A DNA stretch of 64,000 bases. Source: Candidatus Woesearchaeota archaeon (GTDB taxonomy: Archaea; Nanobdellota; Nanobdellia; Woesearchaeales; UBA10216). A program made the translations under genes and the position numbers. The DNA lies in contig JACPTE010000024.1 in the NCBI GenBank assembly GCA_016192945.1, positions 16,001 to 80,000 on the forward strand, read 5' to 3'. Below are positions 1 through 43,768 of this stretch, one piece after another; within the stretch, counting starts at the first letter, position 1; each line of letters begins with the position of its first letter. Under the pieces are notes generated by a model. The model was not told the origin of the DNA and searched no databases. It saw only the letters and a program-made list of their open reading frames with translations.

Positions 1-311
1 TTCAGGAAGCCTATTATAGTCCTTAAAAGTGTGCTTTTTCCATGCCCGCTCGGCCCAACTATTCCAAAAACCTCCCCCCTGAATATCTCAAGGTTGATGC
101 TGTTGAGGATTTTTTTCTGCCCTATGCTGACAGATACGTTGTTCAGCTTTATTATGGGCTCCAAAGTTTCACCTGTTATTTATTCTGTCCTGTGCAATAT
201 ATAAAACTTCGCAAGCGAAAAATTTAAATATAAGAGATACTACTTTAAAGTGTAAACATAGAAAAGCTATTTACGAGTGAAAAATAGCCATATTTATCAC
301 CTCTTTTCCCA

Positions 312-393: not shown

Positions 394-2262
394 TCAACGC
401 CTTCTGAGGGATGCTTTTTTGACTATCCGCCTTTTTCTGGCTTTGAGTATGGCAAGTGTTATAACAGCCCCTGAAATCAGTCCGATGGAAAAAATCGCAT
501 AGTTTTTTGCTTCAGTTGGCAGCTGCAATGGAAGTCTCTGCCAGAGCTCAATTATTGTCTGGTTGGTGCCTGTTGCAGGGTTGGATTTTGGCTCCTTGAA
601 GTATATGTCCATGTCGCTTAGTTCTAGCGCATATTCAGCATACAAAAGCGATGAGTAAGGGTCTGTCTGGTTCAGTGAAGTGGAGTATTCATAATAGCTG
701 TATCCTACTATTGGGAATATCCCCTTGTTCGTATTTCTTGATATTGTTCTTTTTGCTGCCTCCAGTTTCCTCGCAACCAGCTTGCTGATGTCGCCGTCAT
801 CAAGCCCTAGTGAGCTTAAAAGCACATCTGACTCTGCCTTGGCCTTTGAGGCTTTTGAAAGGCAAAGCCCGTAATCCTTGTTTTTGAGGTCATCATACGC
901 CCTGTCTATGTCTTTCCTTGATGGCAGTATGCTTTCCGGGATATAAATCTGCGAATACTCGTACCTCTCTTCAGCCTCCGATATCTTGCTCCTGCACGAG
1001 GCTTCCAGCACTTCCTTGTCAGCAGCCAGCTTTTGTGAGCCCTTTCCGAGGAACTGCGCCCACGCCCTGGCGCTCATCACTCTTTCCTGGGCGTATGCAA
1101 GGTAGAACAGTGCATCATGAATCCTGTTCTGGTCATTATAGCTGGCTGAGGTGTTCAGGTTGTAGTATGCCTCAATCAGCCGCTCTTTTACTGCCGCATA
1201 TGCCTGAAAATCTGTTATTGTGGCTGATTCTGGAATGCCCTTTTCCATGGTTTCTGCGTCTGTTTTTGTCTGCTGAATCTGGCTGGGCAATTCGCTTTTT
1301 GTGTAGTTCTGGGCTTCAAGGAGTAAATACCTGTTTCGCACGTTTGCCCCGAAGCAATAGCTCGCTGCCGAGTAGTAATGCCCTGATTTAAGTTCATCCT
1401 GCCCCCTTTTGCTCAGGTTTCTGGCAATGCTGTATGAGTCAGCATAATTTGACTGCGCTTTTGATGGTTGCGCACTTGATGCCTGGGCTGTCAGGAGTGT
1501 ATTGTTCTCAATCAGCAGTTCTGAAGAGATGCTTTCATTGCATATTGTAAATGCGAGGTTTTTCATTGTCTCTATGTAAGACTGCTCAATCCCGAAGTCA
1601 GGGTTGGATTCGGCTGTTTTTTTCCCTGTAAACTGGTATAATGCCTCCTTTATGTCGCTCACTTCTATTACTTCAATGCCCAAGTTCTTCCCATAATCAG
1701 ACAGGTCTGTGCTCTGGTTGGTTGAGTTGCCTGATTTGTAATACCTCTCCCCTTCTGGTATGAGGACTTTTTTCAGGCCAGCCTCTTTTGCAGCAGTTAT
1801 CTTCTCCTTGAGCCCTCCGACAGGGCCTATAAGGCCGCCTGAGTTTATTGTTCCTGTCATAACAACATCATCCCTTGTAGGAATGCCCTCAATTACTGAC
1901 ACTGTAAGGACTGATGCCGCTGCACCAGCGCTTGGCCCTCCTACAAGAGCAGTGTCTGCCTTGATTGTGTAAAAGAAGTTATACTTGTCGCAGTCAAACT
2001 GGAATTCAGTGCATGCTATCTCTTTGGCAAACCGGGTGGATATCTGGGTGTCCATCTTGGTGAGCGGGAATGACTCTATGAATACCTTTCCCTCTCCAGG
2101 CTGGATTTCAAGGTATAAGTCTGCTGAAAGCCCTGAGTAGCCATCCTGCTGTTCAGAGACTGCCAGGAGCTTCATATGGCCTTTCCTGTAAGCCTCTGCA
2201 CCAGCGCTTGAGCTTATTATTATGGCAAATGCAAGGAATATTGGCAGTATTTTTGTTTTCAT
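394..2262 (-). CDS. Secreted, membrane-anchored Lon-like serine protease (S16 proteolytic domain) with a ~400 aa Ser/Asn/Tyr-rich extension and C-terminal TM anchor
   Basis: N-terminal signal peptide MKTKILPIFLAFAIIISSSAGAEA. S16 catalytic motifs VGGPSAGAAAS...GGLKEK (Ser-Lys dyad spacing like Lon). C-terminal hydrophobic helix plus KARKRRIVKK. TATA aaaattataaaca about 25 nt upstream. Confidence 0.8.
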   Translation of the reverse strand: MKTKILPIFLAFAIIISSSAGAEAYRKGHMKLLAVSEQQDGYSGLSADLYLEIQPGEGKVFIESFPLTKMDTQISTRFAKEIACTEFQFDCDKYNFFYTIKADTALVGGPSAGAAASVLTVSVIEGIPTRDDVVMTGTINSGGLIGPVGGLKEKITAAKEAGLKKVLIPEGERYYKSGNSTNQSTDLSDYGKNLGIEVIEVSDIKEALYQFTGKKTAESNPDFGIEQSYIETMKNLAFTICNESISSELLIENNTLLTAQASSAQPSKAQSNYADSYSIARNLSKRGQDELKSGHYYSAASYCFGANVRNRYLLLEAQNYTKSELPSQIQQTKTDAETMEKGIPESATITDFQAYAAVKERLIEAYYNLNTSASYNDQNRIHDALFYLAYAQERVMSARAWAQFLGKGSQKLAADKEVLEASCRSKISEAEERYEYSQIYIPESILPSRKDIDRAYDDLKNKDYGLCLSKASKAKAESDVLLSSLGLDDGDISKLVARKLEAAKRTISRNTNKGIFPIVGYSYYEYSTSLNQTDPYSSLLYAEYALELSDMDIYFKEPKSNPATGTNQTIIELWQRLPLQLPTEAKNYAIFSIGLISGAVITLAILKARKRRIVKKASLRRR

Positions 2263-2370
2263 TGGATTAAAGAACAGCTATTTGTTTATAATTTTTAGTA
2301 TTGAGAACTTTGAAAAACTCCCTTTGGTCGTTTTTCAACTGCGGTTTCTCCCAAGGGCATCCGCAGCTTT

Positions 2371-2739
2371 TTAGCGCTTCCTTCTTCTGGCAGCTGGTTT
2401 AGTGGCCTTTTTCCTGCTGGATGGCTTTGCTGCTCTTTTCGCTGGCTTTTTTGATGGCTTTTTCCCTGATGGCACCTTCCTGGATATCAGCCCCATAACA
2501 GAAGTGGACTGTGCCGGAGCCCCTGAAAGTGCAGCCCTTGATAGGATAGGCCTTTCTGGCTTTTCAACAGAAGGAGGGGTTATTGATATCATGGATGCTA
2601 TGAACATCAGTGCAAATGCGAAGTCAAATGCAAAGCCCCATTTAAGGTCTATTTTGCCGGATGCAGTGTAAACAGTGACAACAAGGAATCCTATCATGCT
2701 TGTGAGCATGAACATTCTTGGCAGCGGCACTCTTTCCAT
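2371..2739 (-). CDS. Small membrane protein with Lys/Arg/Pro-rich (histone-H1-like) C-terminal tail
   Basis: 122 aa ORF, two predicted TM helices, tail KKPSKKPAKRAAKPSSRKKATKPAARRRKR. No recognisable family. Confidence 0.5.
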   Translation of the reverse strand: MERVPLPRMFMLTSMIGFLVVTVYTASGKIDLKWGFAFDFAFALMFIASMISITPPSVEKPERPILSRAALSGAPAQSTSVMGLISRKVPSGKKPSKKPAKRAAKPSSRKKATKPAARRRKR

Positions 2740-2749
2740 TTGTGTGTCC

Positions 2750-3145
2750 TTATGCTATTGATTTGAGCTTCTGCTCTATATCATTCAATTCTGCTTCCAG
2801 CCTGTCAACGCTGGGCATTCTTTTTTTGGGAATCTTTTTTTCCTCAGAGCCGGGCTCAGCGATTTCATGCTCTTCTGCAGGCAGTTCCTCTTTCATTCGC
2901 ACATCCCATTTTGGGAGCGTCTTGACATCTATTTTAGGGAGCTCTGATTTTATCTCTGGGATCATGCTTAAGATGTCATCGTATATTATCCTGAGTTTCG
3001 CTATCTGGGCTTGCTTTTCTGCCCTTATCGCCTTTAGCTTCTCGTATTTCTGCAGGAACTGGATGAGGTCTTTTGATGACTCCAGCACCCCTTTTCTTAT
3101 TACATTGGGGTTTTCTATTCCCATATAAAGGATGTCGCTTGGCAT
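2750..3145 (-). CDS. Hypothetical coiled-coil protein
   Basis: 131 aa, charged heptad-like sequence (EKLKAIRAEKQAQIAKL; LEAELNDIEQKLKSIA). Tightly spaced with neighbours on the same strand. Confidence 0.5.
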   Translation of the reverse strand: MPSDILYMGIENPNVIRKGVLESSKDLIQFLQKYEKLKAIRAEKQAQIAKLRIIYDDILSMIPEIKSELPKIDVKTLPKWDVRMKEELPAEEHEIAEPGSEEKKIPKKRMPSVDRLEAELNDIEQKLKSIA

Positions 3146-3153
3146 TGGTTCTC

Positions 3154-3372
3154 CTATCTGGGCTTTGAGAGGGCTGACTGGATGTTGGAAATCTTGTTTT
3201 CAATCCTGGCCAGCTCAGATTGCCAAGCGCCCAGCTCATGCTCCTCCTCAGTTTTAAGCTCGTTGATTCGCTTGAAGACTATCTTGGCATCTTCAAGCCG
3301 TTTCTTGACTCGGTCTATTGCTGTTTGGACCTTCTTGTATCTTTCAACCTTGACAAACACTGGTGTGCTCAT
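3154..3372 (-). CDS. Hypothetical small coiled-coil protein
   Basis: 72 aa ORF in a tandem array with 2750-3145 and 3375-4040. Lys/Glu-rich helical sequence. Confidence 0.5.
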   Translation of the reverse strand: MSTPVFVKVERYKKVQTAIDRVKKRLEDAKIVFKRINELKTEEEHELGAWQSELARIENKISNIQSALSKPR

Positions 3373-3374
3373 TT

Positions 3375-4040
3375 TTAAACCTCAAACAAAGTTTTATCCA
3401 TGAACATCATGCCTCGCTGCATATCCTCAAGGCATATGCTCAACTTTTCGTATTCACTCTCGCTTGAATTTCTGATTCTCTCAAAATCAGGGCCAGCCTG
3501 ATTATAGCCTGCTATCTCATCCAGGTCTTCCACAATCTGCCTGAACTTGTAGTCTTTTATGAATATGTGTGGCTCCTCATACTTTTTTTCCTCTGCATGC
3601 GCCGCAGGCTCTTTGGATTCTTCAGCCAATTTGGGAGTGAACTCTGTGATTCGGGTCATTTCCTTCATGTCTGTTTCTTTAATCGGGGTTATAGGAGCCG
3701 CTGCCCATTGTGGAACAGGTGCGGTTTTTGGAATGTCGGGCTGGAATGGCTGCTGCTGCAAAGGAGCAGGTATTGCTTGTTGTTCGTATGAATTGTAGTT
3801 GAATGGCTTGATTTCAGGCAGGCTGTCCAGTTCAGGGAATGGCGCTGGTTTTGGCATGTTAGCAGAAGTTGAGCTGTCTAATGGCGCTAATGGCTGGAGC
3901 GTGGTTGGAGATGTGCTGGCTCCGGAGAATACTGGCAGGTCTGAGGAGAATGATTCTATTTTAGGGGGAGGGGGAAGTTCAAACTCCTGCATTTGGGGCA
4001 TTAGCTCCTTTTGGCCCTTGTTTTCCCCGCCTTTTTTCAT
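3375..4040 (-). CDS. Hypothetical protein with Pro/Gln-rich low-complexity N-terminal half and structured acidic C-terminal domain
   Basis: ORF 3375-4058. TATA tgttatatagagg lies inside the first codons of the long ORF, so the start is probably the internal ATG at 4040 (MKKGGENKG). Confidence 0.5.
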   Translation of the reverse strand: MKKGGENKGQKELMPQMQEFELPPPPKIESFSSDLPVFSGASTSPTTLQPLAPLDSSTSANMPKPAPFPELDSLPEIKPFNYNSYEQQAIPAPLQQQPFQPDIPKTAPVPQWAAAPITPIKETDMKEMTRITEFTPKLAEESKEPAAHAEEKKYEEPHIFIKDYKFRQIVEDLDEIAGYNQAGPDFERIRNSSESEYEKLSICLEDMQRGMMFMDKTLFEV

Positions 4041-4183
4041 AAACCCGAATAAGCCCACTTGCCCACCTCTATATAACAGATTAACCCTTGTTGAAGACCA
4101 GTATCTTTGCTGAATACTGCATAAGGGGATTATAAATCTTTCGTATTACTGGCTGGGGGTATTATAAACTTTTCCATTCAAAA

Positions 4184-5713
4184 TCACTCATATTCTATGG
4201 TGGCTGGGGGCTTCTGTGTTATGTCATATAATACCCTGTTGACTCCCTTGACGTTCTTTACTATGTCTGATGATGCCCTTTCCAGTAGCGTGTATGGCAG
4301 TTTTGCCCAGTCCGCTGTCATTGCATCGCTGCTTGTGACTGCCCTTAGGGCTATTATGTAGCTGTATGTCCTCTCATCTCCCATGACTCCCACTGCCTTT
4401 ACAGGAAGTAGTGCTGCAAGTGCCTGCCATGTTTTTTTGTAGAATCCGTGCTTCTTTAGCTGCTCTATGAATATGAAGTCAGCCTCTCTCAGGATTTTGA
4501 GCTTTTCATTTGTGACCTCTCCTATCACCCTTATTGCAAGACCTGGCCCTGGGAATGGGTGGCGCTCAAGCAGCTCTTCACTTATGCCCATAGACCTCCC
4601 TAAAGCCCTGACTTCGTCCTTGTAGAGGTCTCGTAGCGGCTCTACTGTTTTGAGCTTCATTTTTTCAGGCAGCCCGCCTACATTGTGGTGGGTCTTTATC
4701 AACGATGCTGTTTTTGATGGCTGTGCGCTTTCTATCCTGTCTGGATAGATTGTCCCCTGTCCCAGGAATTCTATGTCTCCGTGCCTCTTCTTGAGTTCGG
4801 CAGCCTTCCTTTCAAACACGTCTATGAATGTGTGCCCTATTACTTTCCTTTTCTGCTCTGGCTCTACAACTCCCTTCAGCCTTTTGAGGAACAATTCTGA
4901 GGCATCTATGAAATGGAAGTTCTCAAATTCCAGCTCATGGAATGTCTTCCTGACCTGCTCTGCCTCATTTTTCCTGAGCAGCCCGTTGTCAACAAACACG
5001 AGATGTATATTCCTGGTTGCCTTTCTTATGATGGTTGCTGCGACAAGGCTGTCAACTCCCCCGCTTACTGCCATTATTACGCCCATGCTGCCAATCCTGC
5101 TTTTTGCCTCTTCAGCCAGCCTGGTGCCAATGCCCTTTGCAGAATAGTTCCTTTTTGCCTTGCATATCCTGAGGAAATTGTCAAGAATCCTGATTCCATT
5201 CAGTGTATGCTGGACTTCTGGATGGAACTGGACCCCGAATATCTTTGCCGGTTCATTTGCATAAGCTGCTACTTTGCAGTCTGGCGTTGATGCCAGCAGC
5301 TCAAATCCTGGCTTCAGCTCAGTGACAGAATCCCCGTGGCTCATCCATACCTGCTCTTTCCTCTTCATGCCTTTCAGCAGTTGGGATGGCTTTTTTATGC
5401 TCATCATCTCCCTGCCGTATTCCTTGCTGCTTGAAACAACCCTGCTTCCAGTAAGGTGGGCAACCAGCTGGTGGCCGTAGCAAATCCCAAGAACAGGTAT
5501 TCCGAGCTTCAGTACACCTGGGCTTATTGTGGGAGCGTCCTTCTCATAAACGCTTCTTGGCCCGCCTGACAGGATAATGCCTTCAGGCATCATTGACTTT
5601 ATGCTTTCAACAGGCTCTGTCCAGTGGACAAGCTCTGAGTAAACGCCAAGCTGCCTTATCCTCCGGGCTATCAGATGCGATACCTGGGATCCAAAGTCAA
5701 TGATGAGAATCAT
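4184..5713 (-). CDS. guaA: GMP synthase (glutamine-hydrolysing), GATase + ATP-PPase domains
   Basis: MILIIDFGSQ...GICYGHQ (class I GATase) and SGGVDSLVAATI PP-loop. Probable start at internal Met. Overlaps the upstream HEPN gene by 4 nt. Confidence 0.93.
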   Translation of the reverse strand: MILIIDFGSQVSHLIARRIRQLGVYSELVHWTEPVESIKSMMPEGIILSGGPRSVYEKDAPTISPGVLKLGIPVLGICYGHQLVAHLTGSRVVSSSKEYGREMMSIKKPSQLLKGMKRKEQVWMSHGDSVTELKPGFELLASTPDCKVAAYANEPAKIFGVQFHPEVQHTLNGIRILDNFLRICKAKRNYSAKGIGTRLAEEAKSRIGSMGVIMAVSGGVDSLVAATIIRKATRNIHLVFVDNGLLRKNEAEQVRKTFHELEFENFHFIDASELFLKRLKGVVEPEQKRKVIGHTFIDVFERKAAELKKRHGDIEFLGQGTIYPDRIESAQPSKTASLIKTHHNVGGLPEKMKLKTVEPLRDLYKDEVRALGRSMGISEELLERHPFPGPGLAIRVIGEVTNEKLKILREADFIFIEQLKKHGFYKKTWQALAALLPVKAVGVMGDERTYSYIIALRAVTSSDAMTADWAKLPYTLLERASSDIVKNVKGVNRVLYDITQKPPATIEYE

Positions 5714-6108
5714 TCTTGAAGCACGCTTTTCATCCATTTATAAAATCTTTCTGCATTTAATATGGCTTCATCAGCTTCCGATTTGCTGATAAGAATTGGC
5801 TCATATTCAGCCCTGCTCTTCAGGCTTAAAAGGTTCAAAAGCTGCCTGTTCTTCTTGCTCACATCGTCTAGTTTTATCTCATTCAGGAGCCTTGCAACAT
5901 CATCATGCCTGATTCCTCTATGTCTTATACCCTTGAATTTTACGGTAAGAGCATCAGCAGAATTAATACCGCAATGCACAGCAGCTATTACGCAGACATT
6001 CCAATGGCTTTTCTGATATGCGTCGTTCATGGATTCAAAGCATTCATCTGCCTTCTTGATGTAATTCTTGTAAAGGCTGCTAGCAACATTTACCGTGTCA
6101 GTTCCCAT
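5710..6108 (-). CDS. HEPN-domain protein (toxin-like partner of the adjacent nucleotidyltransferase)
   Basis: 132 aa all-helical. RHRGIRH (R-x4-6-H-like) motif and C-terminal SRAEYE segment typical of MNT-associated HEPN. 19 nt overlap with the MNT gene. Confidence 0.7.
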   Translation of the reverse strand: MGTDTVNVASSLYKNYIKKADECFESMNDAYQKSHWNVCVIAAVHCGINSADALTVKFKGIRHRGIRHDDVARLLNEIKLDDVSKKNRQLLNLLSLKSRAEYEPILISKSEADEAILNAERFYKWMKSVLQE

Positions 6109-6692
6109 ATATCCTCGCCCATTACCATTATATATTTTTCCAGCACTTCATTAACAAGAGTGCTTTTCCTCCTGTCCTGAAATTCCTTCCTGCTCAACAC
6201 AATGGGAATAATCACATTCCCGTATTTTTGCATTACTTCAGATGCCTTGGCTTCAATAAATCTCATCGCCTCTTCCTTATCAGATGAAATAACCACTAAA
6301 TCTATATCGCTTTCAGGAACCTCGCTTCTCTTTGCAATGCTGCCAAAAATAGCCATTGAAGTTATTTTACCCGTTGCGCTGGCAGCAAGAAATTGCCTGA
6401 ACTTTTCAAATGCCTGCAATTCCTCCTCAAATATTGTTTTGAATTCATCATAAATCGCGCTTTTCCTGTTCAGCACAATATTATTTGACTGTCCGTGATG
6501 TTCCATTAATATGGCATTTGATTTTCTCAATTCTATAACCGCTTTTCTTACGCCTGCATGCGTTACGTCCTTTATAGAGCTTGCAAGTTCCCTAATAGTA
6601 TAAACTTTTGTAGGGTACTTGTGCAGTTCCCTGAGTACCTTAATCCTAACCTTGGTTCCAAGCATATCCTCCAGATAGTTCCTAAATCTCAT
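6090..6692 (-). CDS. Minimal nucleotidyltransferase (MNT, Pol-beta superfamily) with N-terminal winged-HTH
   Basis: FGSIAKRSEVPESDIDLVV (G-S-x9-13-D-x-D) motif. N-terminal RELASSI...THAGVRKAVIELRK resembles a wHTH. Paired with downstream HEPN. Confidence 0.75.
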   Translation of the reverse strand: MRFRNYLEDMLGTKVRIKVLRELHKYPTKVYTIRELASSIKDVTHAGVRKAVIELRKSNAILMEHHGQSNNIVLNRKSAIYDEFKTIFEEELQAFEKFRQFLAASATGKITSMAIFGSIAKRSEVPESDIDLVVISSDKEEAMRFIEAKASEVMQKYGNVIIPIVLSRKEFQDRRKSTLVNEVLEKYIMVMGEDIWELTR

Positions 6693-6845: not shown

Positions 6846-7973
6846 TCATGTCAAAACCTCCATCAGCTTTTTGTTTTCAATAGCAGCCTTTATCTCCATT
6901 GCAATCCTTTTCCCTACGCTTATGTCCTCGCCGTAGAGGTAGTGGCCGTAGGGCGTGTATCTTGTTCCAGGGCTTCCTGGTATGCGGAGGCTGCAGTCAA
7001 AGATTATGAATTCCTCTTTTGGGGGGCCTGGGGTTATTGCGCCCTGCAGTGCGAAGGGCCCTATTATGCCTGGCTTGTAATATTGCTGTGTTGCCTTTAC
7101 AAATCCCTCGCCAAGCTCATATGCCTTTTCAAGCAGCGATTCCTTTAATGTTACTGCCATATGCCCGTTTTCTATGTATTTTGGCCTTGCATCATCCCCT
7201 AAATCAAGCTGCTGCCTTGCAGTCAGCCTTAGGAAGCCATCAATGTTTGTCTGCCTCCTTGTGTCTGTCCCGAGAAGCTCAAGCTCTTTTGTCAGGGGGG
7301 AATGGAAAAAGTTCAGGTTTACCTGGGGCCCCAGCACGAATTCCTCAATAACCGCCTTTTTCAGGGATTCCGGGGTTATCCTTCCAGCCTTTACAAGCTC
7401 TCTTGACTTTTTAAGGTAATCTTCATGGCTTTTTACAAAGAAGAACTCCCTCTCGTAAGGCCGTTCTGCCTCTGATGCCTTCACTATTGAAAGCCTGTCT
7501 ATTTCCTCTGGCTTGCTGAACCGCCTGGGTGTTTTTATTCCTGCCTTCTCAAGAAGGAAGTACTGGTTGTTGGGCTGGTCTCTTTCCTCTGCCCTTATCA
7601 GCGACCTTGTTCCGAATATGGGAACCATGAACTTGTTTTCTATGTCAGGATAGTTGCAGTAAACCCAGAAGTATCTGCTGTGGATGAATATTGTGTTCAG
7701 CTTCCTTAGCTTTTCCTGGACTTCCTCCCTTGCGATGTCAGCAAAGCTGTCAACCAGTATAACCTCATCAACAATTCCCCTGCCGCCCCTTGACTTGTAA
7801 TGGCTGGAATAGGTTTTTTCCCTTCCTTTCTGGCATACGACAACTGTCCTTAATCCGAGGTCTTTTGCCCCCCTGCATACATCAAGCGCTGAATGGCCCC
7901 CTAGTGTCCCTATTGTGACTTTATCAAGGTCGTATTTTTCAACAATCCGCTTTATTTCTGCCTGGGCTATCAT
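6846..7973 (-). CDS. purP: 5-formaminoimidazole-4-carboxamide ribonucleotide (FAICAR) synthetase, formate/ATP-dependent (ATP-grasp)
   Basis: IGTLGGHSALDVCRGAKDLG N-terminus and overall length match archaeal PurP. Paralog of 8450-9451. Confidence 0.85.
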   Translation of the reverse strand: MIAQAEIKRIVEKYDLDKVTIGTLGGHSALDVCRGAKDLGLRTVVVCQKGREKTYSSHYKSRGGRGIVDEVILVDSFADIAREEVQEKLRKLNTIFIHSRYFWVYCNYPDIENKFMVPIFGTRSLIRAEERDQPNNQYFLLEKAGIKTPRRFSKPEEIDRLSIVKASEAERPYEREFFFVKSHEDYLKKSRELVKAGRITPESLKKAVIEEFVLGPQVNLNFFHSPLTKELELLGTDTRRQTNIDGFLRLTARQQLDLGDDARPKYIENGHMAVTLKESLLEKAYELGEGFVKATQQYYKPGIIGPFALQGAITPGPPKEEFIIFDCSLRIPGSPGTRYTPYGHYLYGEDISVGKRIAMEIKAAIENKKLMEVLT

Positions 7974-8428
7974 TTCAGGCTCACTATTAATATGCCTACT
8001 ATCATTACAGCCGCTCCCAGCAGTGTTCTTATGAGTTCCCTTGTTGACTGAAGCTCTTTCAGCACGAGTATCCCAAGCAGCACTGCGATTATGAAGTTGA
8101 GGTTGTAGATTAGTGACATCTTGGAAATTTCAAAGTTCCTTGCAACCCCCAGTGTAATCATCAGGTACCCCGCTGCCCAGATTATCCCTGCAATTACAAG
8201 CAGCAGCCCGCTGCCGAATGGAACGCTGAAGTCTGGCTTGTTCATGAGCCATGCTATGAGGAATACGGCGATTATTCCAGCCCCGAAGAGGAGCTCTGCA
8301 AGGAATGGGCTGGGATTTCCCCTGAAGCCCAGCTTGTACACTATCACGCTGGCTCCGAATGCAACAGCCGCTATGAGGCTGTAAATTATCCACAATTCCA
8401 TTTTAAACACCCTGTTTTTTTTATTCAT
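7970..8428 (-). CDS. Small 4-TM membrane protein, EamA/DMT-like transporter half
   Basis: 152 aa, four hydrophobic helices, sits between the two purP paralogs with 4 nt overlap. Confidence 0.6.
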   Translation of the reverse strand: MNKKNRVFKMELWIIYSLIAAVAFGASVIVYKLGFRGNPSPFLAELLFGAGIIAVFLIAWLMNKPDFSVPFGSGLLLVIAGIIWAAGYLMITLGVARNFEISKMSLIYNLNFIIAVLLGILVLKELQSTRELIRTLLGAAVMIVGILIVSLK

Positions 8429-8449
8429 TTTTTGATATAACAGCCCTTA

Positions 8450-9451
8450 TCATCCAAGAACCCTCTCAACCTGGTTTGATGCTATGGCGTTCTTTATCTC
8501 CCGCGATATCCTCCTGCCTGTGCTCATTGGCTCGCTGTACTTCAGGTCTGTGTATGGGCTGCCGTTTATGTAGGGGTTTGTGCCTGCAACTATCCTTGCT
8601 GAAACCTCAAAAACGTAGAATTTCAGGTCTGGGGTGATTACAGTTTCAAGGCTGAACGGCCCGAATATGCCCCTTTTCTCTATTGCCTTTGATGCGGCAA
8701 CTACTGCCTCTCCCATCCTGAAAATCTCTGGCAGCAGCGACTCGCGAACAACCATGGGCACGTTTCCTGTTATATTGTATGAGGTGTCAAGCCCCATGTC
8801 AAGCTGGTCTTTTGCAGCTATCCTTCCTATTGAGTCCACGTTGCTTTCATATCTCTTGTCAAAGCTCATCACTTCAACCTCGTCATTAAGGGGGGAATAA
8901 AAATAGTGTATGTATATCGGAGCTCCAACTATGTATTCCTGTATTATGTACGCCTTGCCGTGGTGCTCCTTTATCTTTCGCTCAAACTCGCTGCCGCTTT
9001 TCGCAAGGAAAAATCCCTTTCCCCCTTTTGCGCCATAGAACTTTATTATTGACGGCACGTCTATGTCTTCCGGATTCCTGAAAATCCTTGGCAGCGTAAG
9101 GCCTGCCTTCTTGAGCCATTCCCTCTGCATTTCCCTGTCAGTTTCCCACTTGAGTATTTTCTTGTTGCCGAAGTAGCTTACCTTGAGCCGCTCTATCTGC
9201 TCTGTGCTCATTGCTCCTGTGAAGCTTCCGTGTGGTATTACTATGGCGTTTTCGGATATGAGCTCATTTTCAACTGAGGGGAATTCCTTGAATGAATTGA
9301 GGGTTATTATCCTGTCAGCCACTTTAAACCTTTTGTACGGCTCTTCCCTGTTTTTTTCGCATACGGCTATTGTCCTGAATCCCTCGTCCCTAGCGCCCTT
9401 GAGTATCTGGAGTGCTGAGTGGCTGCCGAGGGTGGCTATCCTTGTGGCCAT
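8450..9451 (-). CDS. purP: FAICAR synthetase paralog (PurP family, ATP-grasp)
   Basis: MATRIATLGSHSALQILKGARDEGF. Alignable along its whole length with the 6846-7973 product. Start taken at internal Met. Confidence 0.85.
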   Translation of the reverse strand: MATRIATLGSHSALQILKGARDEGFRTIAVCEKNREEPYKRFKVADRIITLNSFKEFPSVENELISENAIVIPHGSFTGAMSTEQIERLKVSYFGNKKILKWETDREMQREWLKKAGLTLPRIFRNPEDIDVPSIIKFYGAKGGKGFFLAKSGSEFERKIKEHHGKAYIIQEYIVGAPIYIHYFYSPLNDEVEVMSFDKRYESNVDSIGRIAAKDQLDMGLDTSYNITGNVPMVVRESLLPEIFRMGEAVVAASKAIEKRGIFGPFSLETVITPDLKFYVFEVSARIVAGTNPYINGSPYTDLKYSEPMSTGRRISREIKNAIASNQVERVLG

Positions 9452-10827
9452 AGCCTTTCCTCCCAGTGCCTGCATATGCTTTCTGTTTTTGATGCTGCTA
9501 TCCCTGTGTAGGAAGACGGCTCTTTTAGGATGCTGATTTGCTGCTCAGTCATCTTTTTTATGTAAGGCTCTGCTTCCCTGTCGCTGAAAAGCAGCTCTGC
9601 AATGCTTTTTCCTGATGTGTGTGCTTTCAGGGTGAGCTTCCGGACATATTCGTGGGCGTCAGGATGCCCGCTGGCTGCGAGGAGTATGTATGCCGGCTCT
9701 GCAGATATCATGCCCTTGTTTTTTTCAAGATTCTTTGTGAGGCTGCCTGCATCAACTGTTATTTTTGACATTATCCTGTTGAGCCTGTTTGCTGATAGCG
9801 TGAGCCCGGCTATTATTTCAGTGGCGAACCTTGAGCTGGCAGAGTTTGTGAGGTCCCTCTGGTGCTCTGAAATCTGGTCCATGTAAAGGGTTGTCATTCT
9901 CGGCATGAAGGCTTTCCACATTGACTTTACGTTCTCAAAGTTTATCGGGTTCCTCTTGTGGGGCATTGTGCTGGAGCCAACCTGGGCCTGCTCAAACGCC
10001 TCTGCTACTTCAGAGATTTCTGACCTCTGGAGGTGCCTCATGTCATCAGCAAGGTTTGCCAGGACTCCGAATGCAGAAACAGCAGCATGGATGTAATCTG
10101 TCACGAATTCAGGCTCAACTATCTGGGTTGAGTGTGTTGCCGGCTTTAGCCCGAGCTTTGAGAGGTAGTCTATCTCAAGCTTTTCAGGCTCCCTGAAGAA
10201 AAGCGATGATGCATTGTAGTTCCCTACTGCGCCGGACAGCTTCCCCCTAAGATTAGACGCCGCCTCTTTTATGGCGATTATCCTCCCTCCAAGCCTGCTC
10301 ACGTATTCAGCTATTGCAAACCCGAATGTTATGGGCTCTGCGTGCTGGCCGTGTGTCCTTCCTATCTGGAGCGTGTTTTTTTCCCTTCTTGCAAGCTCTA
10401 TGAGGGTTTTTTCAAGGTTTAGCAGCTGCGGGATTATGAGATTGCTTGCAGCGTCCTTAAGCCTCGCTGCCTCAGCAGTCCCTATTATGTCTGATGATGT
10501 GGCTGTGAAGTGCACATATGGCTTTGCCTTGTCAGAAACCCTTGACCTGATGCAATTGACAAGGGCCCGGATATCGTGCTTGATTCTTTCCTCTTCCTTG
10601 TATACATCCTCTGCTGTGACTTTCCTGCACGCCTCAGATACTTCCTGCACCACTTCCTTGCTGCACACCCTGTTTTCAGCGAGTGCCTCAACAAGCTTTT
10701 CCTCTGCAATGAGGAGGTATCTGATTGATGCTTTTTCTGAGAGGTATTTGTTTATTTCGCTGTAAAGCTCCCTGTTTCCTGCATAATACCTGTAGTCCAG
10801 CGGGCTTATTGAGTCAAACCTGTCCAT
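9436..10827 (-). CDS. purB: Adenylosuccinate lyase
   Basis: Fumarate-lyase signature GSSTMPHKRNPINFE. Typical PurB N-terminus MDRFDSISPLDYRY. Confidence 0.93.
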   Translation of the reverse strand: MDRFDSISPLDYRYYAGNRELYSEINKYLSEKASIRYLLIAEEKLVEALAENRVCSKEVVQEVSEACRKVTAEDVYKEEERIKHDIRALVNCIRSRVSDKAKPYVHFTATSSDIIGTAEAARLKDAASNLIIPQLLNLEKTLIELARREKNTLQIGRTHGQHAEPITFGFAIAEYVSRLGGRIIAIKEAASNLRGKLSGAVGNYNASSLFFREPEKLEIDYLSKLGLKPATHSTQIVEPEFVTDYIHAAVSAFGVLANLADDMRHLQRSEISEVAEAFEQAQVGSSTMPHKRNPINFENVKSMWKAFMPRMTTLYMDQISEHQRDLTNSASSRFATEIIAGLTLSANRLNRIMSKITVDAGSLTKNLEKNKGMISAEPAYILLAASGHPDAHEYVRKLTLKAHTSGKSIAELLFSDREAEPYIKKMTEQQISILKEPSSYTGIAASKTESICRHWEERLWPQG

Positions 10828-11798
10828 CAGATATACCCCCTTCTTGCGAGGTTTTTCCTGATTCTTTCTGTTGCGTCTCCTGGAACTGCATTGAGCTTGC
10901 TCCCTGTTACCTGCTCATAAGCTGTTATGTACCTGTTTGCTGCCTCAATCCTCACTTCATCAGGTATCTCAGGCATTGTTCCCTGCCCCAGGTATCCTTG
11001 GTCTGCCAGCCACTTCCTTACGTATTCCTTGTCTATCCTTCTCTGCTCAAGGCCTTTTTCAAAAAGCCCGTGGTAGCTGTCCTTGTACCAGAATCTTGAG
11101 CTGTCAGGCGTGTGCATCTCGTCAATGAGCATTATCTCACCGCCTTCATCCCTTCCGAACTCGTATTTTGTGTCCACAAGGATTATGTTGTTTTGGGCGG
11201 CGATTCTTGTTCCCAGCTCAAAGAGCTTGAGGCTTGTCTCTGAAACCGCGTCAAACTCATCCCTGTCCATGAGCCCCCTTTTTATTACCTCATTTCCTGA
11301 TACAGACTCGTCATGCCCTCCCTTCTCTGCCTTTGTTGAGGGCGTTACAATTGGCATTTCAAGCTTTTGGTCTTTCTTGAGCCCGTCAGGAAGCCTGTGC
11401 CCGCAGAACTCCCTCGCGCCCCTGCTGTAGCTGTACCAGATTGATGTTGTGGTGACTCCTGTAAGGTATCCGCGAACAACAAACTCCACAGGTATTGGAG
11501 TGCAGTTCCTGGCAACTGTTACATTCGGGTCTGGGATTTCTATGACATGGTTCGGCGCGATGCTCTTTGTCTTGCTGAACCAGAATTCCGACATCTGGTT
11601 CAGCACCTGGCCTTTGAAAGGCAGGGTGCACAGCACAACATCAAATGCAGAGAGCCTGTCTGTTGTGACTATTATTCTTTTATCGCCAACTATGTAGTTG
11701 TCCCTTACCTTTCCCCTGTAAACCTCGCAATCATCTAAGGCAAAATCAGTCTTTTCCAGGACAAGCCTAAGCTGCTTCCTGATTGTATCGGTGTCCAT
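10827..11798 (-). CDS. purC: SAICAR synthetase
   Basis: YRGKVRD and DRLSAFD motifs. Eukaryotic/archaeal long form. Confidence 0.93.
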   Translation of the reverse strand: MDTDTIRKQLRLVLEKTDFALDDCEVYRGKVRDNYIVGDKRIIVTTDRLSAFDVVLCTLPFKGQVLNQMSEFWFSKTKSIAPNHVIEIPDPNVTVARNCTPIPVEFVVRGYLTGVTTTSIWYSYSRGAREFCGHRLPDGLKKDQKLEMPIVTPSTKAEKGGHDESVSGNEVIKRGLMDRDEFDAVSETSLKLFELGTRIAAQNNIILVDTKYEFGRDEGGEIMLIDEMHTPDSSRFWYKDSYHGLFEKGLEQRRIDKEYVRKWLADQGYLGQGTMPEIPDEVRIEAANRYITAYEQVTGSKLNAVPGDATERIRKNLARRGYI

Positions 11799-11803
11799 GC
11801 TTC

Positions 11804-12445
11804 TCAGAGCTCCTTAAGCATACTTAATTTTATTTCCATGATGCTGTTTACAACAATGTCTGCAATTGCCAGCTCATCTGGCTTGTGGGTGGTGGCAACG
11901 GCTATGCATTTCATGCCAGCGTTCCTTGCAGCCTGGATGCCGTGCTTTGAGTCTTCAACTATGACGCACTCATCTGGCTTGGCATTGAGCTTCTCAGCAG
12001 CTTTTATGAAGACTTCGGGGTCAGGCTTGCCTTTTTTAGTGTCTGCCGCTGTTACAACTGCATCAAAAAAGTTCCCTAGCGAAAGCTTGCCAAGTATGAG
12101 GTCAGCATTCCCTTGTGTGGCGGCAGTTGCAAGCGCTACTTTATATCCGAGAGATTTTATTTTGTGAAGAAGTTCCACAGAGCCATTGATTGGCTTAAGG
12201 TCGCGTCTTACAGACTCCCTGAAATAACTATCTTTTTCCAGCGCCAATTCCTTGAGCTTTTCTTCGTCATCAATCCCGAGAAAATGCCTGAGGGTGACCC
12301 TTGGCTGTATTCCGAACCACTTCTTGTAAACATCCGCTGTGATGGTTTTCCCATGCCTTTCAAGAACTTTCTTATAGGCTGCAAAATGCAGGGGTTCAGA
12401 ATCTATGATGACGCCATCCATGTCAAAGATTACTGCCTTGATCAT
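11804..12445 (-). CDS. HAD-superfamily hydrolase (beta-phosphoglucomutase/phosphatase-like)
   Basis: Motif I VIFDMDGVI. Motif III/IV K...DS..G. 4 nt overlap with purE. Confidence 0.8.
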   Translation of the reverse strand: MIKAVIFDMDGVIIDSEPLHFAAYKKVLERHGKTITADVYKKWFGIQPRVTLRHFLGIDDEEKLKELALEKDSYFRESVRRDLKPINGSVELLHKIKSLGYKVALATAATQGNADLILGKLSLGNFFDAVVTAADTKKGKPDPEVFIKAAEKLNAKPDECVIVEDSKHGIQAARNAGMKCIAVATTHKPDELAIADIVVNSIMEIKLSMLKEL

Positions 12446-13206
12446 TTTTTGCTTTCCTCTTTGTCTGCATTGATGACAGCTGCAGCAATTTCCTTTCTGT
12501 AATCAGCAAGCGCCTTATTATTTCCAACGATTTCTGCGGCTGCAACAGCAGCATTGTCTGCCCTGTTAAGGCTGACCCAGATTCCATTTTTTATGCTTGC
12601 AAGCTTCAAGGCATCTTTAGCACTTGTGTTTTCCTTCACAGGGCAGTTTATTGTCAGGCCATTTGGCTTTCCAACCTTTCCTGCGCCGGCAATGCTGACA
12701 AACCTTATGTTAATGCAGTCGTCCTGCAGGATATAGGAAAGCTCGTACTGGACATTGAGCCTCTTTAGCATGTCTGCTGACCTTTCTGCGTAAGGGCTTT
12801 TTACCAGGACAGAAACTTTTTTCCAGCCTTTCGCAATCAATGCGGCAGCATCAGCAGCCTCTTCCGCAGCATCAATGCCGACAGACAGAACAGGAATGCC
12901 TGGGGGCATCTGAAGGGTTGAAAGAAGCGCATCCAGGCCGTTGAAGTTGTCGCTGCATGGCACGCCGATGACAGGCGTCATAGTCCTTGCAGCAATTGCG
13001 CCGGCAAGGTGCGCAGCCATTCCAGCGCCCGCAATTATAGCAGATGGTTTGGAGCCATTAAGGATTTCGTCAAGCTTGCCAGGGCTCTTGTGAGCCGAGC
13101 ATATCCTCAATTCAAAAGGGGCGTTAAGTTCCTTAAGCCTTGAAACAACCCTGTCGTAAACTGCCTTGTTGCTCTTGCTTGCAAAAATGACAAGTACGGT
13201 TCCCAT
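12442..13206 (-). CDS. purE: N5-CAIR mutase / AIR carboxylase catalytic subunit with a C-terminal extension (partial second repeat)
   Basis: AGMAAHLAGAIAARTMTPVIGVP and GIPV.SVGIDAA motifs. 254 aa, versus ~160 for a single PurE domain. Confidence 0.85.
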   Translation of the reverse strand: MGTVLVIFASKSNKAVYDRVVSRLKELNAPFELRICSAHKSPGKLDEILNGSKPSAIIAGAGMAAHLAGAIAARTMTPVIGVPCSDNFNGLDALLSTLQMPPGIPVLSVGIDAAEEAADAAALIAKGWKKVSVLVKSPYAERSADMLKRLNVQYELSYILQDDCINIRFVSIAGAGKVGKPNGLTINCPVKENTSAKDALKLASIKNGIWVSLNRADNAAVAAAEIVGNNKALADYRKEIAAAVINADKEESKK

Positions 13207-13246
13207 GTGTATAGGTAAAGCCGTTTATTTTTAAATTGAACTGTTT

Positions 13247-14014
13247 TCACGCCAGCATAGCCTTTGCGTGATTTACGATGTTCCTGTATAATGCAAGGCC
13301 CTGCCCCTCCTCAGGAAGCTGCTCGCGGCTCCATCTCGGATGCTGGTTTCGGATAACGTATTTTTCAGGGTGTGGCATCATCCCAAAGACATTGCCCTTG
13401 ATATTCGTTACTGCAGCTATGTTCCGCATTGCCCCGTTTGGGTTTTCAGGATAGCCCCTTGTATCATTCAGCAGCCTGTCGCAGTACCTGAACGATACCT
13501 GGCCGTTCCTTTCAAGCCTGGCGAGGTCTGCCTCTGAGGCAACAAACTTTCCCTCGCCGTGGTTTACAGGGACATGCATGCTTTTGATGCCCCGCGTGAA
13601 TATGTTGTCAGCAGCAGGCTTGATGTAAATCCACCTGTCCTCAAAGTGGCCTGAGTCGTTGCCTGTTAGTGTGGCTTCGCAGTTTCCAGGAAGAAATCCT
13701 GTCTTCACCAGCACCTGGAACCCGTTGCATATTCCTATAAGCAGTTTTCCATCCTTGACAAATTTTTGGAAGTCAGATTTCAGCGAATGGCTGATTTGGG
13801 CTGCCATTATCTTTCCAGCGCCTAAATCGTCGCCATAGCTGAACCCGCCTGGAATGACAGCTATATGGAAGCTGTCCAGGCTTGTCCTGCCTTCTATGAG
13901 GTCATTGATATGGGCCTGCCTGGTCTCAGCCCCTGCCAGTTTTAATGCGTGCTCAGTCTCGTTGTTGCAGTTCAGCCCTGAGCCCCTCAGCACCAGTGCA
14001 TTTGGAACAGCCAT
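13247..14014 (-). CDS. purQ: FGAM synthase glutamine amidotransferase subunit
   Basis: Class I GATase with GICNGFQVL. Adjacent to purL. Confidence 0.9.
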   Translation of the reverse strand: MAVPNALVLRGSGLNCNNETEHALKLAGAETRQAHINDLIEGRTSLDSFHIAVIPGGFSYGDDLGAGKIMAAQISHSLKSDFQKFVKDGKLLIGICNGFQVLVKTGFLPGNCEATLTGNDSGHFEDRWIYIKPAADNIFTRGIKSMHVPVNHGEGKFVASEADLARLERNGQVSFRYCDRLLNDTRGYPENPNGAMRNIAAVTNIKGNVFGMMPHPEKYVIRNQHPRWSREQLPEEGQGLALYRNIVNHAKAMLA

Positions 14015-14015
14015 T

Positions 14016-16853
14016 TTACCACCTGAATGTTTGCTGCCATGAGTCTTTCAGCTCGGAAATCCTGGCAGATATTGCTATTTCCCCATCAAGCCCTTTTACA
14101 GAGAAGAGCCTGTCATCTGAAAGCTCGCCAACCCTTGCTGTGGGGGCTGGTTTCATTGCAGACTCAAATTCCTTTTCCCTTCCCTTCTCAACCTCTGCAA
14201 TGAATCTCGTGTTGGATTCTGAGAACAGGAGCTTGTAGTTTTTCTTGTCGCCCTCGTATGGGACTGCAGCAAGGCTGAGTTTCATTCCGAGGTCGCCTGA
14301 AAATGCCATCTCTGCTGCTGCCACAGCGATTCCGCCCTCTGAGCAGTCGTGGCAGCTTCTTACCAGCCCCTTGCTGATTGCTGAGCTCATTTTCTCAAAC
14401 ACAATGGGGGCTGAGTCCCTTACTCTCGGAACATTGGCTCCGGTCTCGTTTTTAAGGCCGTAAAAATAGCTTCCCCCAAGCTCGTCATAGGTAGCTCCAA
14501 CAATGTAGATGCTGTTGCCTGCCTTCTTGGCATCCATTGATACTGTCTTCCTTATGTCGTCAGTTACGCTTACTGCTGAGATGAGAAGCGTGTCAGGGAT
14601 GGTTATTGTCTTTCTCTCTATGTTGAATGCGTTGTTCAGGCTGTCCTTGCCTGATATGTACGGGAGTTCAAGCATTACTGCGAATTCCCTGCATGCCTTT
14701 GCAGCCCTTGTGAGCCTGCCCATGCTCTCCTCGCTGGAGACCCCGCCCCAGCAGAAGTTGTCCAGGATTGCCGTGTGGGCTGGGTTGCCTCCGGCTGCGA
14801 CTGCATTTCTTAATGCCTCGTCTATTGCTGAGGCTGCCATCCAGTATGGGTCTATCAGGCTGTATCTCGGGTTTATTCCGTTTGAGACTACGATGCCCCT
14901 CCACGAGTCAAACAGGGGCTTGATGACTGCTGCGTCGCTTGGCCCGTCGTTGAATGCCCCGACAAGGGGCTTCAGTATTGTGGCTGCCTGGACTTCGTGG
15001 TCATACTGCCTTATTACCCATTCCTTGCTGGCTATTGATGGGTGTGAAAGGATGCTTTTTAGTGCGGGAGTATAGTCTTTTTCCTCCCTGAAATCAGGCT
15101 CTTTCAGCATTGGCGTTTTCCATACTGCCTTCCTGCTGCGCTTAGGCAGGCCCTGGTGCAGGAATTCCATGTCCAGGTCAATAACCCTCTTGGTTCCGTA
15201 GTAAACCTCCAGCCTCTTGTTTCCTGTAAACTCTCCGATGATAGTTGCCTCAGTTCCCTCTTTTCTGCATATCCTGATGAACTCGTCAACATTCCCTGTT
15301 GGGACAGAGAAAACCATTCTCTCCTGGGATTCTGAAACCCAAATCTCCCAGGGGACCATTGCCTGGTGCTTGAGTGGAACCCTGTCCAGGAAAACACGAA
15401 CTCCTGTGTCTTTTGCCATTTCGCCTATGGCAGAGCTGAATCCCCCTCCGCCGCAGTCAGACACGAATGTGTAAAGCCCCTTGTCTCTTGCTTCAAGCAT
15501 GGCGTCCATGAATTTTTTTTCCTCTATGGCGTTTCCAATCTGGACTGCGCTGCTTGGCGAGTCCTCGTCAAGCTCGGCTGAGCTGAATGTGGCTCCGTGA
15601 ATCCCATCCCGCCCAGTCCTCCCTCCAATAACAACTAAAAGCTCTCCCTCGGAAATCCTTTTTTTCTCCATTCCGTCAGGGATTATGCCTGCTGTGCCGC
15701 AGTAGACCAGGGGTGCTCCAAGGTAGTTGTCATGGAATATAATAGCGCCGTTGACTGTTGGTATGCCCATCCTGTTGCCGTAATCACGGACAGCGTTGAC
15801 AACGCCCTTCATTATTCTCTTCGGATGCAGGATTTTCTCAGGGATTTTGCCCTTGTAGTTGGGTGGTGCGAAGCAGAAAACATCTGTATTGAAAATTGGC
15901 TTTGCTCCCAGGCCTGCTGCCAGGATGTCTCTTATGACTCCTCCTATTCCGGTTCCTGCGCCTCCGTAGGGGTCCAGGGCTGATGGGTGGTTGTGGGTTT
16001 CCACCTTGAACGCTACATTCACGTTATCAGTGAACCTTATGATGCCTGCATTGTCGCTGAAGACAGACACGAGCCAGTCCTTATTTAATGATTCTGTTGC
16101 TGCTACTATTGTTTCCTTGAACAGGTTCCTGATGAGCTGCCTTTTTCCATCTTCAAGGTATTCCACTTCAGAGTTGAATGTCTTGTGCTTGCAGTGCTCG
16201 CTCCATGTCTGCGCAATGGTCTCAAGCTCGCCGTCAGTGGGGTTGCGCTTTATCTCCCTGAAATAGTCCCTTATTGTCTTCATTTCCTCAATGTTCAGGG
16301 ACAGCAGCCCCTCCCTGCTAATTCTCATAAGCTCAGTTTCGTCAGCATCTGCCAGGTCTATGGTTTCAACCCTTGGCTCAACTGAGTGCCCTGATAAAGG
16401 TGCTGTTTTTGTAGCTGAGGTTTCATATCCAACAGTGCAGTCCTGGATTATCTCGTTTGAAAGGAACTTTCCAATCCTTCCTGCATCCGGCTCGCCTATT
16501 CCCTCAACGATTACCTTCTGGGAGGTTTTGACTGAGCCTGCATCAATTCCTATGCCTGCTATCGCCTCCATTGCGCTGAGCTCAACAGGGTCCTGGACTC
16601 CCCTCCTGTATGCGATTTCAATTATCCAGCATCCCTTGAAGCCCTTGTTGCCGATGAAATGCTCCTGCACCAGCCTTTCAGTGAGCAGCTCTTCAGCTAT
16701 TGCCTTTGCCTGGTTTTCGTCAACGCCCTCAATGGTGTAAACATCAGCAACAGAAACCATTTTGCAGGATATTCCCAGGTCTTCTGAAAGGGCATTCTTC
16801 AGGGATTCCCCCCTTAAGTCTTTTCCTTTTGGGTAAATCTCAATCCTCGGCAT
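14016..16853 (-). CDS. purL: FGAM synthase II fused to N-terminal PurS-like domain(s) (PurS-PurL fusion)
   Basis: 945 aa versus ~720 for PurL. PurL core begins near RISREGLLSLNIEEM...ETIAQTWSEHCKHKTF. The preceding ~170 aa look like one or two PurS-like units. No separate purS in the window. Confidence 0.9.
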   Translation of the reverse strand: MPRIEIYPKGKDLRGESLKNALSEDLGISCKMVSVADVYTIEGVDENQAKAIAEELLTERLVQEHFIGNKGFKGCWIIEIAYRRGVQDPVELSAMEAIAGIGIDAGSVKTSQKVIVEGIGEPDAGRIGKFLSNEIIQDCTVGYETSATKTAPLSGHSVEPRVETIDLADADETELMRISREGLLSLNIEEMKTIRDYFREIKRNPTDGELETIAQTWSEHCKHKTFNSEVEYLEDGKRQLIRNLFKETIVAATESLNKDWLVSVFSDNAGIIRFTDNVNVAFKVETHNHPSALDPYGGAGTGIGGVIRDILAAGLGAKPIFNTDVFCFAPPNYKGKIPEKILHPKRIMKGVVNAVRDYGNRMGIPTVNGAIIFHDNYLGAPLVYCGTAGIIPDGMEKKRISEGELLVVIGGRTGRDGIHGATFSSAELDEDSPSSAVQIGNAIEEKKFMDAMLEARDKGLYTFVSDCGGGGFSSAIGEMAKDTGVRVFLDRVPLKHQAMVPWEIWVSESQERMVFSVPTGNVDEFIRICRKEGTEATIIGEFTGNKRLEVYYGTKRVIDLDMEFLHQGLPKRSRKAVWKTPMLKEPDFREEKDYTPALKSILSHPSIASKEWVIRQYDHEVQAATILKPLVGAFNDGPSDAAVIKPLFDSWRGIVVSNGINPRYSLIDPYWMAASAIDEALRNAVAAGGNPAHTAILDNFCWGGVSSEESMGRLTRAAKACREFAVMLELPYISGKDSLNNAFNIERKTITIPDTLLISAVSVTDDIRKTVSMDAKKAGNSIYIVGATYDELGGSYFYGLKNETGANVPRVRDSAPIVFEKMSSAISKGLVRSCHDCSEGGIAVAAAEMAFSGDLGMKLSLAAVPYEGDKKNYKLLFSESNTRFIAEVEKGREKEFESAMKPAPTARVGELSDDRLFSVKGLDGEIAISARISELKDSWQQTFRW

Positions 16854-43683: not shown

Positions 43684-43768
43684 TAAAAAAACAAGAGTAT
43701 CAAGCTTAGTTTATAAAGTTTATTTATTTTTTGTGGTGTTTGAAAAATCTGCCTATAATTTTATAAAC

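Follow-up and report, generated by a model that had tools for sequence, protein, structure and literature searches.

Whether an archaeon can deploy a Lon-fold protease on the outside of its membrane is the question raised by one gene in a stretch of 64,000 nucleotides from a Candidatus Woesearchaeota archaeon (contig JACPTE010000024.1, positions 16,001–80,000), referred to here as the 64-kb window. To our knowledge, archaea are the textbook case of a Lon protease, LonB, that faces the cytoplasm only, and the processing and degradation of proteins outside the archaeal membrane are poorly understood. The gene (394..2262, minus strand, stop codon at 394–396) is complete and encodes a protein of 622 amino acids. 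The explanation that best accounts for the observations overall, and that we hold with evenly balanced confidence, is that its product is a surface-anchored, ATP-independent Lon-fold protease engaged in housekeeping, namely the processing or quality control of envelope proteins made by the cell itself.

The open reading frame, first delineated in a preliminary description of the window, is genuine: it lies on the minus strand, the most upstream ATG is used, and the N-terminus of the 622-residue product agrees with that of its homologues in the list of open reading frames and in the alignment. The protein is 100% identical to NCBI HYY72_03330 from a Candidatus Woesearchaeota metagenome-assembled genome (MAG), which is annotated as a "hypothetical protein", and database labels for the family read either "hypothetical" or "S16 family serine protease".

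By every feature examined, the protease is a member of the S16/Lon_C family, and the identity of its proteolytic domain (P-domain), its intact catalytic residues, the lack of an ATPase and its family-wide conservation are shown. The Pfam model Lon_C (PF05362) matches with 56.7 bits against a curated cutoff of 21.1 (E 3.1e-15), and in a phmmer comparison with the PDB the GGPSAG and GGLKEK motifs align column for column with those of Yersinia and E. coli Lon (E 3e-12). These sequence models reach only residues ~85–177, while the AlphaFold2 (AF2) model, built on a 25-sequence alignment with a predicted local distance difference test score (pLDDT) of 82.5 and a predicted template modelling score (pTM) of 0.77, shows the whole P-domain, complete at residues 25–215 (1618..2190, minus strand). 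Foldseek matches the modelled domain (residues 26–215 of the model) to the E. coli Lon P-domain (3wu6/1rr9) over ~200 columns, with an E value of 1.5e-9 and a TMt of 0.79–0.81. Family counts are taken from a MAFFT alignment of 237 full-length members that are 38–59% identical to the query protease (typical identity across the family ~44%), in which the mean column conservation of the Lon domain is 0.65.

The catalytic Ser111 within GGPSAG (1930..1932, minus strand) and the catalytic Lys154, the second lysine of GGLKEK (1801..1803, minus strand), align with the corresponding residues of Lon structures and are present in 237 of 237 members. The first lysine of GGLKEK, K152, varies in the family while K154 does not, and position 136 is threonine in 228 members and serine in the remaining 9. 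Ser111, Lys154 and Thr136 align with S679, K722 and T704 of E. coli Lon; the spacing of 43 residues between Ser111 and Lys154 equals that between S679 and K722. The Lon-like Ser–Lys dyad region pointed out in the preliminary description is therefore borne out, with neither residue lost in any member. The same description saw no AAA+ module, in agreement with a Pfam search that returned no AAA+, PDZ or further Pfam domain in the protease, and with full-length Lon models, which score 47–56 bits against cutoffs of 517–891 and match residues 85–177 only. In the AF2 model the Lon domain begins directly after the signal sequence, with no N-terminal domain ahead of it.

A signal-like N-terminus, a transmembrane helix with a basic tail, six invariant cysteines and conserved sequons together provide strong indirect evidence that the ectodomain lies outside the cell and is tethered to the membrane. 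The predicted Sec-type signal sequence (residues 1–24; 2191..2262, minus strand) opens with a basic n-region (K2, K4), continues as a hydrophobic core and closes with an A-E-A site ahead of Y25, where the signal peptide would be cleaved. Hydropathy places the hydrophobic segment at residues 3–24, and in the AF2 model the A-E-A site directly precedes the first strand of the Lon domain. An N-terminal hydrophobic segment is found in 222 of the 237 homologues, usually with A/V-x-A ahead of a conserved GHMKLLAV.

At the opposite end of the protein, hydropathy and the family alignment locate a C-terminal transmembrane helix with a conserved G594-x-x-x-G598 (residues 586–608; 439..507, minus strand), the hydrophobic segment itself spanning residues 587–608. 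The helix is present in 234 of the 237 homologues, G594 being kept in 234 and G598 in 222, and it runs into the putative cytoplasmic stop-transfer tail ARKRRIVKKASLRRR (residues 609–622; 397..438, minus strand). Nine of these last 14 residues are K or R, and across the family the final 15 residues have a median net charge of +7; a basic tail behind a transmembrane helix fits the positive-inside rule. The linker that joins the ectodomain to the membrane (residues 557–585; 508..594, minus strand) is variable, with a conservation of 0.12, and is probably disordered, as judged from a pLDDT below 50 at residues 558–582. An archaeosortase-type sorting signal (PGF-CTERM and relatives) was considered and rejected, since this linker is unconserved, contains no shared motif ahead of the membrane helix and matches no CTERM model in NCBIfam at E<=1. 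As no such motif is present, the C-terminal helix looks like a permanent transmembrane anchor.

The six cysteines (C84, C91, C241, C303, C423 and C467) are invariant in 237 of 237 members, the pattern expected of three structural disulfides, and the ectodomain is predicted to be disulfide-bonded. The protease also carries nine N-x-S/T sequons against ~4 expected, a number reached by 0.7% of shuffled sequences, and the family averages 7.6 sequons per protein against 3.8 in shuffles. Its sequon density of 1.45 per 100 amino acids compares with 0–0.41 in six cytoplasmic enzymes and 3.2–3.6 in two other predicted surface proteins of the same window. One conserved sequon, N182-Q-S (1711..1719, minus strand), lies inside the Lon domain and is kept in 23 of 25 sequences, with N in 220 and S/T in 223 of the 237 members; the N282 sequon is kept in 23 of 25 sequences and the N319 sequon in 18 of 25. 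Taken together, these sequons suggest that the protease is N-glycosylated. The signal peptide and the C-terminal transmembrane segment with its basic stop-transfer, both proposed in the preliminary description, are thus upheld by hydropathy and family conservation, as are the many sequons by their excess over expectation, and the termini, cysteines and sequons all point outward rather than to a cytoplasmic location.

The region between the Lon domain and the linker calls for a different interpretation from the one first given. It had been described as a 400-residue low-complexity tail rich in Ser, Asn, Tyr and Gln, a reading that is ruled out by its entropy, its conservation and the AF2 model. 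Shannon entropy in 40-residue windows is 3.3–3.95 bits, the range of the Lon domain, and the composition is rich in Ser, Ala, Leu, Glu and Tyr (Tyr 7.5%) rather than in Asn and Gln. Modelled alone, residues 216–556 (595..1617, minus strand) form a family-specific all-alpha ectodomain of 12 long helices with a pLDDT of 88 and a pTM of 0.84. Mean column conservation in this helical domain is 0.51, and identity across hundreds of homologues is 38–59% with many invariant columns; conserved motifs include YYSSASYCFGAN, LAYAxERxxSAxSW, SCxxKxSEAEERxQY, YELCLFKASKAKA and FPIxGYSYYEYAxSL. Four of the invariant cysteines (241, 303, 423 and 467) and the conserved sequons N282 and N319 reside here.

A phmmer search with the helical domain over 1.84 billion representatives yielded 764 clusters at E<=0.001, of which 449 reach E<=1e-30. 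In all full-length matches among the 150 listed, the domain occupies approximately residues 210–560 of a protein of 560–660 amino acids and sits directly behind the Lon domain. Searches for a relative of known fold came back empty: Foldseek against the PDB and BFVD found nothing at E<=0.001 (best TM ~0.2), a hidden Markov model (HMM) profile of the domain found no relative among PDB sequences (best E 0.14), and no Pfam model matches at E<=1. An internal duplication was likewise rejected, since hhalign of the two halves produced a match of 20 columns only (E 0.17). The helical domain, which is confidently predicted and has no fold relative in these databases, is a good target for structure determination.

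These features can be assembled into a working model. The protease would be a type-I membrane protein in which the Sec signal exports the N-terminal portion, and the C-terminal transmembrane helix and basic cytoplasmic tail hold the enzyme at the surface. The exported part would be a disulfide-bonded, N-glycosylated ectodomain, comprising a catalytically competent Lon-fold Ser–Lys endopeptidase followed by a rigid helical domain of 340 residues that occurs in this family only. With no nucleotide-binding module detected and no ATP to be expected in the extracellular space, the protease must, if so placed, act independently of ATP, and it would cleave unfolded, loosely folded or peptide substrates as LonC does (PMC3391209). 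A ring oligomer is its probable working form, as in other Lon P-domains, and the conserved GxxxG of the transmembrane helix may promote self-association. The helical domain, placed between protease and membrane, could act as a stalk and as a platform for substrate recognition or gating, the role taken by PDZ in YlbL/SepM. The catalytic dyad, the lack of an ATPase match and the outward topology indicators thus lend support to the proposal, already made in the preliminary description, of an ATP-independent Lon-fold protease at the cell surface.

What this protease most likely does in Woesearchaeota is housekeeping: it would process exported and membrane proteins made by the cell itself, or control their quality. 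Such a role is favoured because the family is broad and strongly conserved, no second copy is seen in the loci examined, and the membrane tether is short. More than 2,277 proteins match the protease over its full length, clustering at 50% identity divides the family into at least 764 clusters, and relatives are encoded at 536 loci of GTDB species genomes, of which the best 80 come from 80 different assemblies. A paralogue search found no second copy of the gene within the 64-kb window. The taxonomic spread is judged from the best 80 of the 536 loci and the best 120–150 protein matches: these 80 loci are labelled Woesearchaeota, Nanoarchaeota or Nanoarchaeia, besides "uncultured Methanosarcinales" records, and the named members of more distant clusters are likewise Woesearchaeota or Nanoarchaeota. 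The third-party MAG records under the name "uncultured Methanosarcinales archaeon" that carry the family are numerous (L005, L008, L011 and many more), and their label is probably a placeholder or an error. An outward-facing Lon-fold protease in hundreds of Woesearchaeota and Nanoarchaeota species would be a concrete candidate for envelope proteolysis or for interaction with hosts and nutrients in an archaeal lineage that is both major and uncultivated.

The surroundings of the gene were compared by calling and clustering open reading frames in 85 loci, with ~6 kb covered on both flanks of the protease gene and 14 kb of the window included. Core genes often surround the protease gene, among them TopA, PfkB and S-adenosylhomocysteine (AdoHcy) hydrolase: topoisomerase I (TopA) lies upstream in 29 of 78 loci, and PfkB and AdoHcy hydrolase follow further downstream in the loci of relatives. 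The commonest neighbour is a protein of ~320 amino acids encoded on the same strand; 63 of 85 loci contain it, and in 42 of 80 it comes directly downstream. Besides a signal or lipobox-like N-terminus and conserved cysteines, it contains two HKD motifs, each after a conserved YFCPxxxC. Its best matches are the Nuc endonuclease 1BYR (E 1e-15) and NucT, and it also matches MitoPLD/Zucchini. Examples of these tandem-HKD, Nuc-like genes occur at 7908–8864 of locus L001, 7883–8848 of L003 and 7969–8601 of L004.

Several considerations weigh against the housekeeping reading, or against parts of the model that underlies it. Isolated Lon P-domains, and YlbL without its transmembrane segment, are hardly active or inactive in vitro (PMC6051672), and the protease activity may therefore need assembly or a partner. 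The signal sequence could serve as an uncleaved anchor instead of being removed. The housekeeping role itself is drawn from phyletic breadth and conservation only, and the fact that a secreted Nuc-like hydrolase is often encoded next to the protease fits scavenging at least as well. Finally, where related genomes share a gene order, the cause may be inheritance and not function.

It is this neighbour that gives substance to the possible, if rather improbable, alternative of a nutrient-scavenging or host-directed surface protease, which would turn environmental or host proteins into peptides alongside the secreted Nuc-like tandem-HKD hydrolase. Both proteins would then be extracellular hydrolases, and a symbiotic way of life is generally predicted for DPANN archaea (PMC8204110). 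The window itself departs from this arrangement: downstream of the protease gene lies an edge-cut ATPase of an ATP-binding cassette (ABC) transporter (1–170, minus strand), seen as an N-terminus with the Walker A sequence GPSGHGKST, and tblastn finds no homologue of the Nuc-like protein, TopA, PfkB or AdoHcy hydrolase anywhere in the 64 kb. The syntenic blocks in other genomes also hold unrelated core genes, and hence their synteny is possibly inherited. The short linker would keep the active site near the cell's own membrane, purine and pyrimidine synthesis enzymes are encoded, so the genome is not extremely reduced, and the high conservation without a second copy (in the best 80 loci from 80 assemblies, and in the window) is untypical of nutritional proteases.

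A bolder form of the same idea, which we regard as doubtful, would make the protein part of a lineage-defining surface machine of Woesearchaeota and Nanoarchaeota, in which a Lon ring, carried over the membrane on a helical fold not seen before, and the adjacent Nuc-like hydrolase constitute an extracellular digestive module. If true, small-celled and probably host-dependent archaea would harvest proteins and nucleic acids (or lipids) from their hosts or surroundings by an ATP-independent use of the Lon fold that has not been described in archaea.

A dedicated, site-specific processing protease in the manner of SepM or YlbL appears distinctly unlikely. Such an enzyme would cleave a single defined substrate or a small number of them, membrane-bound or secreted (for instance a signalling peptide, a regulator of division or the precursor of a surface protein), with the helical domain as its recognition module. 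Known extracytoplasmic Lon-domain proteases do act in this way, YlbL on YneA and SepM on pheromone peptides, and the many invariant surface-type residues of the helical domain (motifs YSYYEY, EERxQY and KASKAKA) suggest a conserved binding partner. Against this, the neighbourhood contains no conserved gene that could encode a substrate, the small genes upstream of the protease being shared by only 5–8 of 85 loci, no PDZ domain is present, and the score of the SepM model, ~25 bits, lies far below its cutoff of 200.

A non-catalytic or cytoplasm-facing protein, either a pseudo-protease scaffold or an inward Lon domain like that of LonB, is very improbable: some isolated Lon P-domains do crystallise with an inactive site geometry (A. 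fulgidus LonB) and the topology is drawn from simple rules only, but all 237 members keep Ser111 and Lys154, the signal-like N-terminus, positive C-terminal tail, six invariant cysteines and enriched conserved sequons all point outward, and there is no ATPase to feed a cytoplasmic chamber. A surface-anchored housekeeping protease remains our preferred interpretation.

The sequence immediately around the protease gene includes a TATA-box-like TTATAAA (2285..2291, minus strand) centred ~26 nt 5′ of the ATG, and 108 bp separate the gene from the one upstream. The position of this element suggests that the protease gene has its own promoter and a leaderless or near-leaderless mRNA. Four small genes on the minus strand (2371–4058) stand between GuaA and the protease gene. 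Their products are a 227-residue protein whose N-terminus is amphipathic (MGLFGFMKK) and which contains a Pro-rich linker, two coiled-coil proteins (72 and 131 residues), and a 122-residue protein in which two transmembrane segments are combined with a long tail of Lys, Arg, Pro and Ala. Pfam and NCBIfam yield no informative match for any of them, only coiled-coil noise. The array of GuaA and small genes recurs in the closest relatives (for example at 2680–4205 of locus L001), so the co-conservation with the protease that the preliminary description had proposed to look for exists among these but does not extend to the remaining loci. A functional link between the protease and the small genes was rejected, as they are co-located in ~5–8 of 85 loci, from the nearest relatives only.

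Two further proteins encoded in the window appear to be surface proteins. An open reading frame of 1199 codons (43169–46768, plus strand) has no Pfam match and contains repeated CDYCTP...C modules and 36–39 sequons; translation probably begins inside the frame, near residue 201 and right before a hydrophobic segment, and the protein ends in a transmembrane segment and basic tail (…LLLLRRIAKRKKKGR), the same anchoring style as that of the protease. The second, of 813 residues (57830–60271, minus strand), has an N-terminal transmembrane anchor, 26 sequons and 18 cysteines, with only a C-terminal alpha/beta-hydrolase (lipase-like) core at residues 636–766 and ~600 unassigned residues ahead of it. 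The genes for this hydrolase and the Cys-repeat protein lie 40–57 kb from the protease gene, beyond the 14 kb analysed for neighbourhood, and to cast either as a substrate of the protease, as had been suggested, is pure speculation.

Elsewhere in the window, overlapping genes for a HEPN protein (5710–6108) and a nucleotidyltransferase (6090–6692, Polbeta/NTP_transf_2), both on the minus strand and sited between GuaA and PurP, look like a HEPN-MNT toxin-antitoxin-like pair. Nucleotide-synthesis genes at 6846–16853 and 34980–39837 (minus strand) are dense for a DPANN genome and include PurP paralogues (6846–7973 and 8450–9475), a fused PurL of 945 residues, GuaA and the large chain of carbamoyl-phosphate synthase. 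An unusual NUDIX-GDPD fusion is encoded at 38155–39837 (minus strand).

Comparison with known Lon-domain systems places the protease beside, rather than within, the described groups, and no account of this woesearchaeal family was found in the literature on Lon-like proteins, archaea, DPANN or Woesearchaeota. With archaeal LonB it has in common that both are membrane-associated S16 proteases of archaea with similar P-domains (A. fulgidus 1z0b, E 5e-11). Whereas LonB has a catalytic motif of the GDSA type, the woesearchaeal protease has GPSAG, and NCBIfam LonB models reach 53–56 bits on the protease against cutoffs of 517–723. LonB contains a functional AAA+ module with inserted transmembrane helices, and both of its domains face the cytoplasm (PMC4343526). 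The protease falls outside the ATP-dependent LonA and LonB groups, having no AAA+ module N-terminal to its protease domain.

LonC proteases such as MtaLonC of Meiothermus taiwanensis degrade unfolded substrates without ATP-powered unfolding (PMC3391209), and the P-domain fold of the woesearchaeal protein matches theirs (7ev6/7eux, Foldseek E 4e-7). LonC is cytoplasmic, with a degenerate AAA-like domain N-terminal to the protease, whereas the woesearchaeal protein has no AAA-like domain, is predicted to be exported and carries its extra domain at the C-terminal side. With nothing N-terminal to its protease domain and with outward topology indicators, it does not belong to LonC.

YlbL of Bacillus subtilis and SepM of streptococci are extracytoplasmic, membrane-anchored Lon-domain proteases that act independently of ATP (PMC6051672; bioRxiv 10.1101/2022.05.27.493805), YneA being the target of the former (PMC6051672) and pheromone peptides the substrates of the latter (bioRxiv 10.1101/2022.05.27.493805). 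The woesearchaeal protease resembles them in its Ser–Lys dyad, its LonA-like GPSAG motif, the lack of AAA+ and the anchoring with the Lon domain outside, a location that is inferred here. Whereas YlbL and SepM are ordered as an N-terminal transmembrane segment, PDZ and Lon_C, the woesearchaeal protease is ordered as signal, Lon_C, a helical domain of 340 residues and a C-terminal transmembrane helix, with no PDZ match, and its family differs further in being archaeal and in having conserved sequons and six invariant cysteines. The HMM search that had been proposed to separate S16 from YlbL- or LonC-like families agrees with this placement, since Lon_C scores above its cutoff and the SepM family model NF041438 reaches 25.2 bits against 200, outside YlbL/SepM membership. 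The view that such a protease is unusual has to be tempered, given the bacterial precedents of YlbL and SepM, the at least 764 clusters and the 536 GTDB loci. The concept of a Lon domain without an ATPase outside the cell is known from bacteria; what is new lies in the architecture, the orphan helical domain and the archaeal lineage, and this protease family would carry the theme from Firmicutes to archaea.

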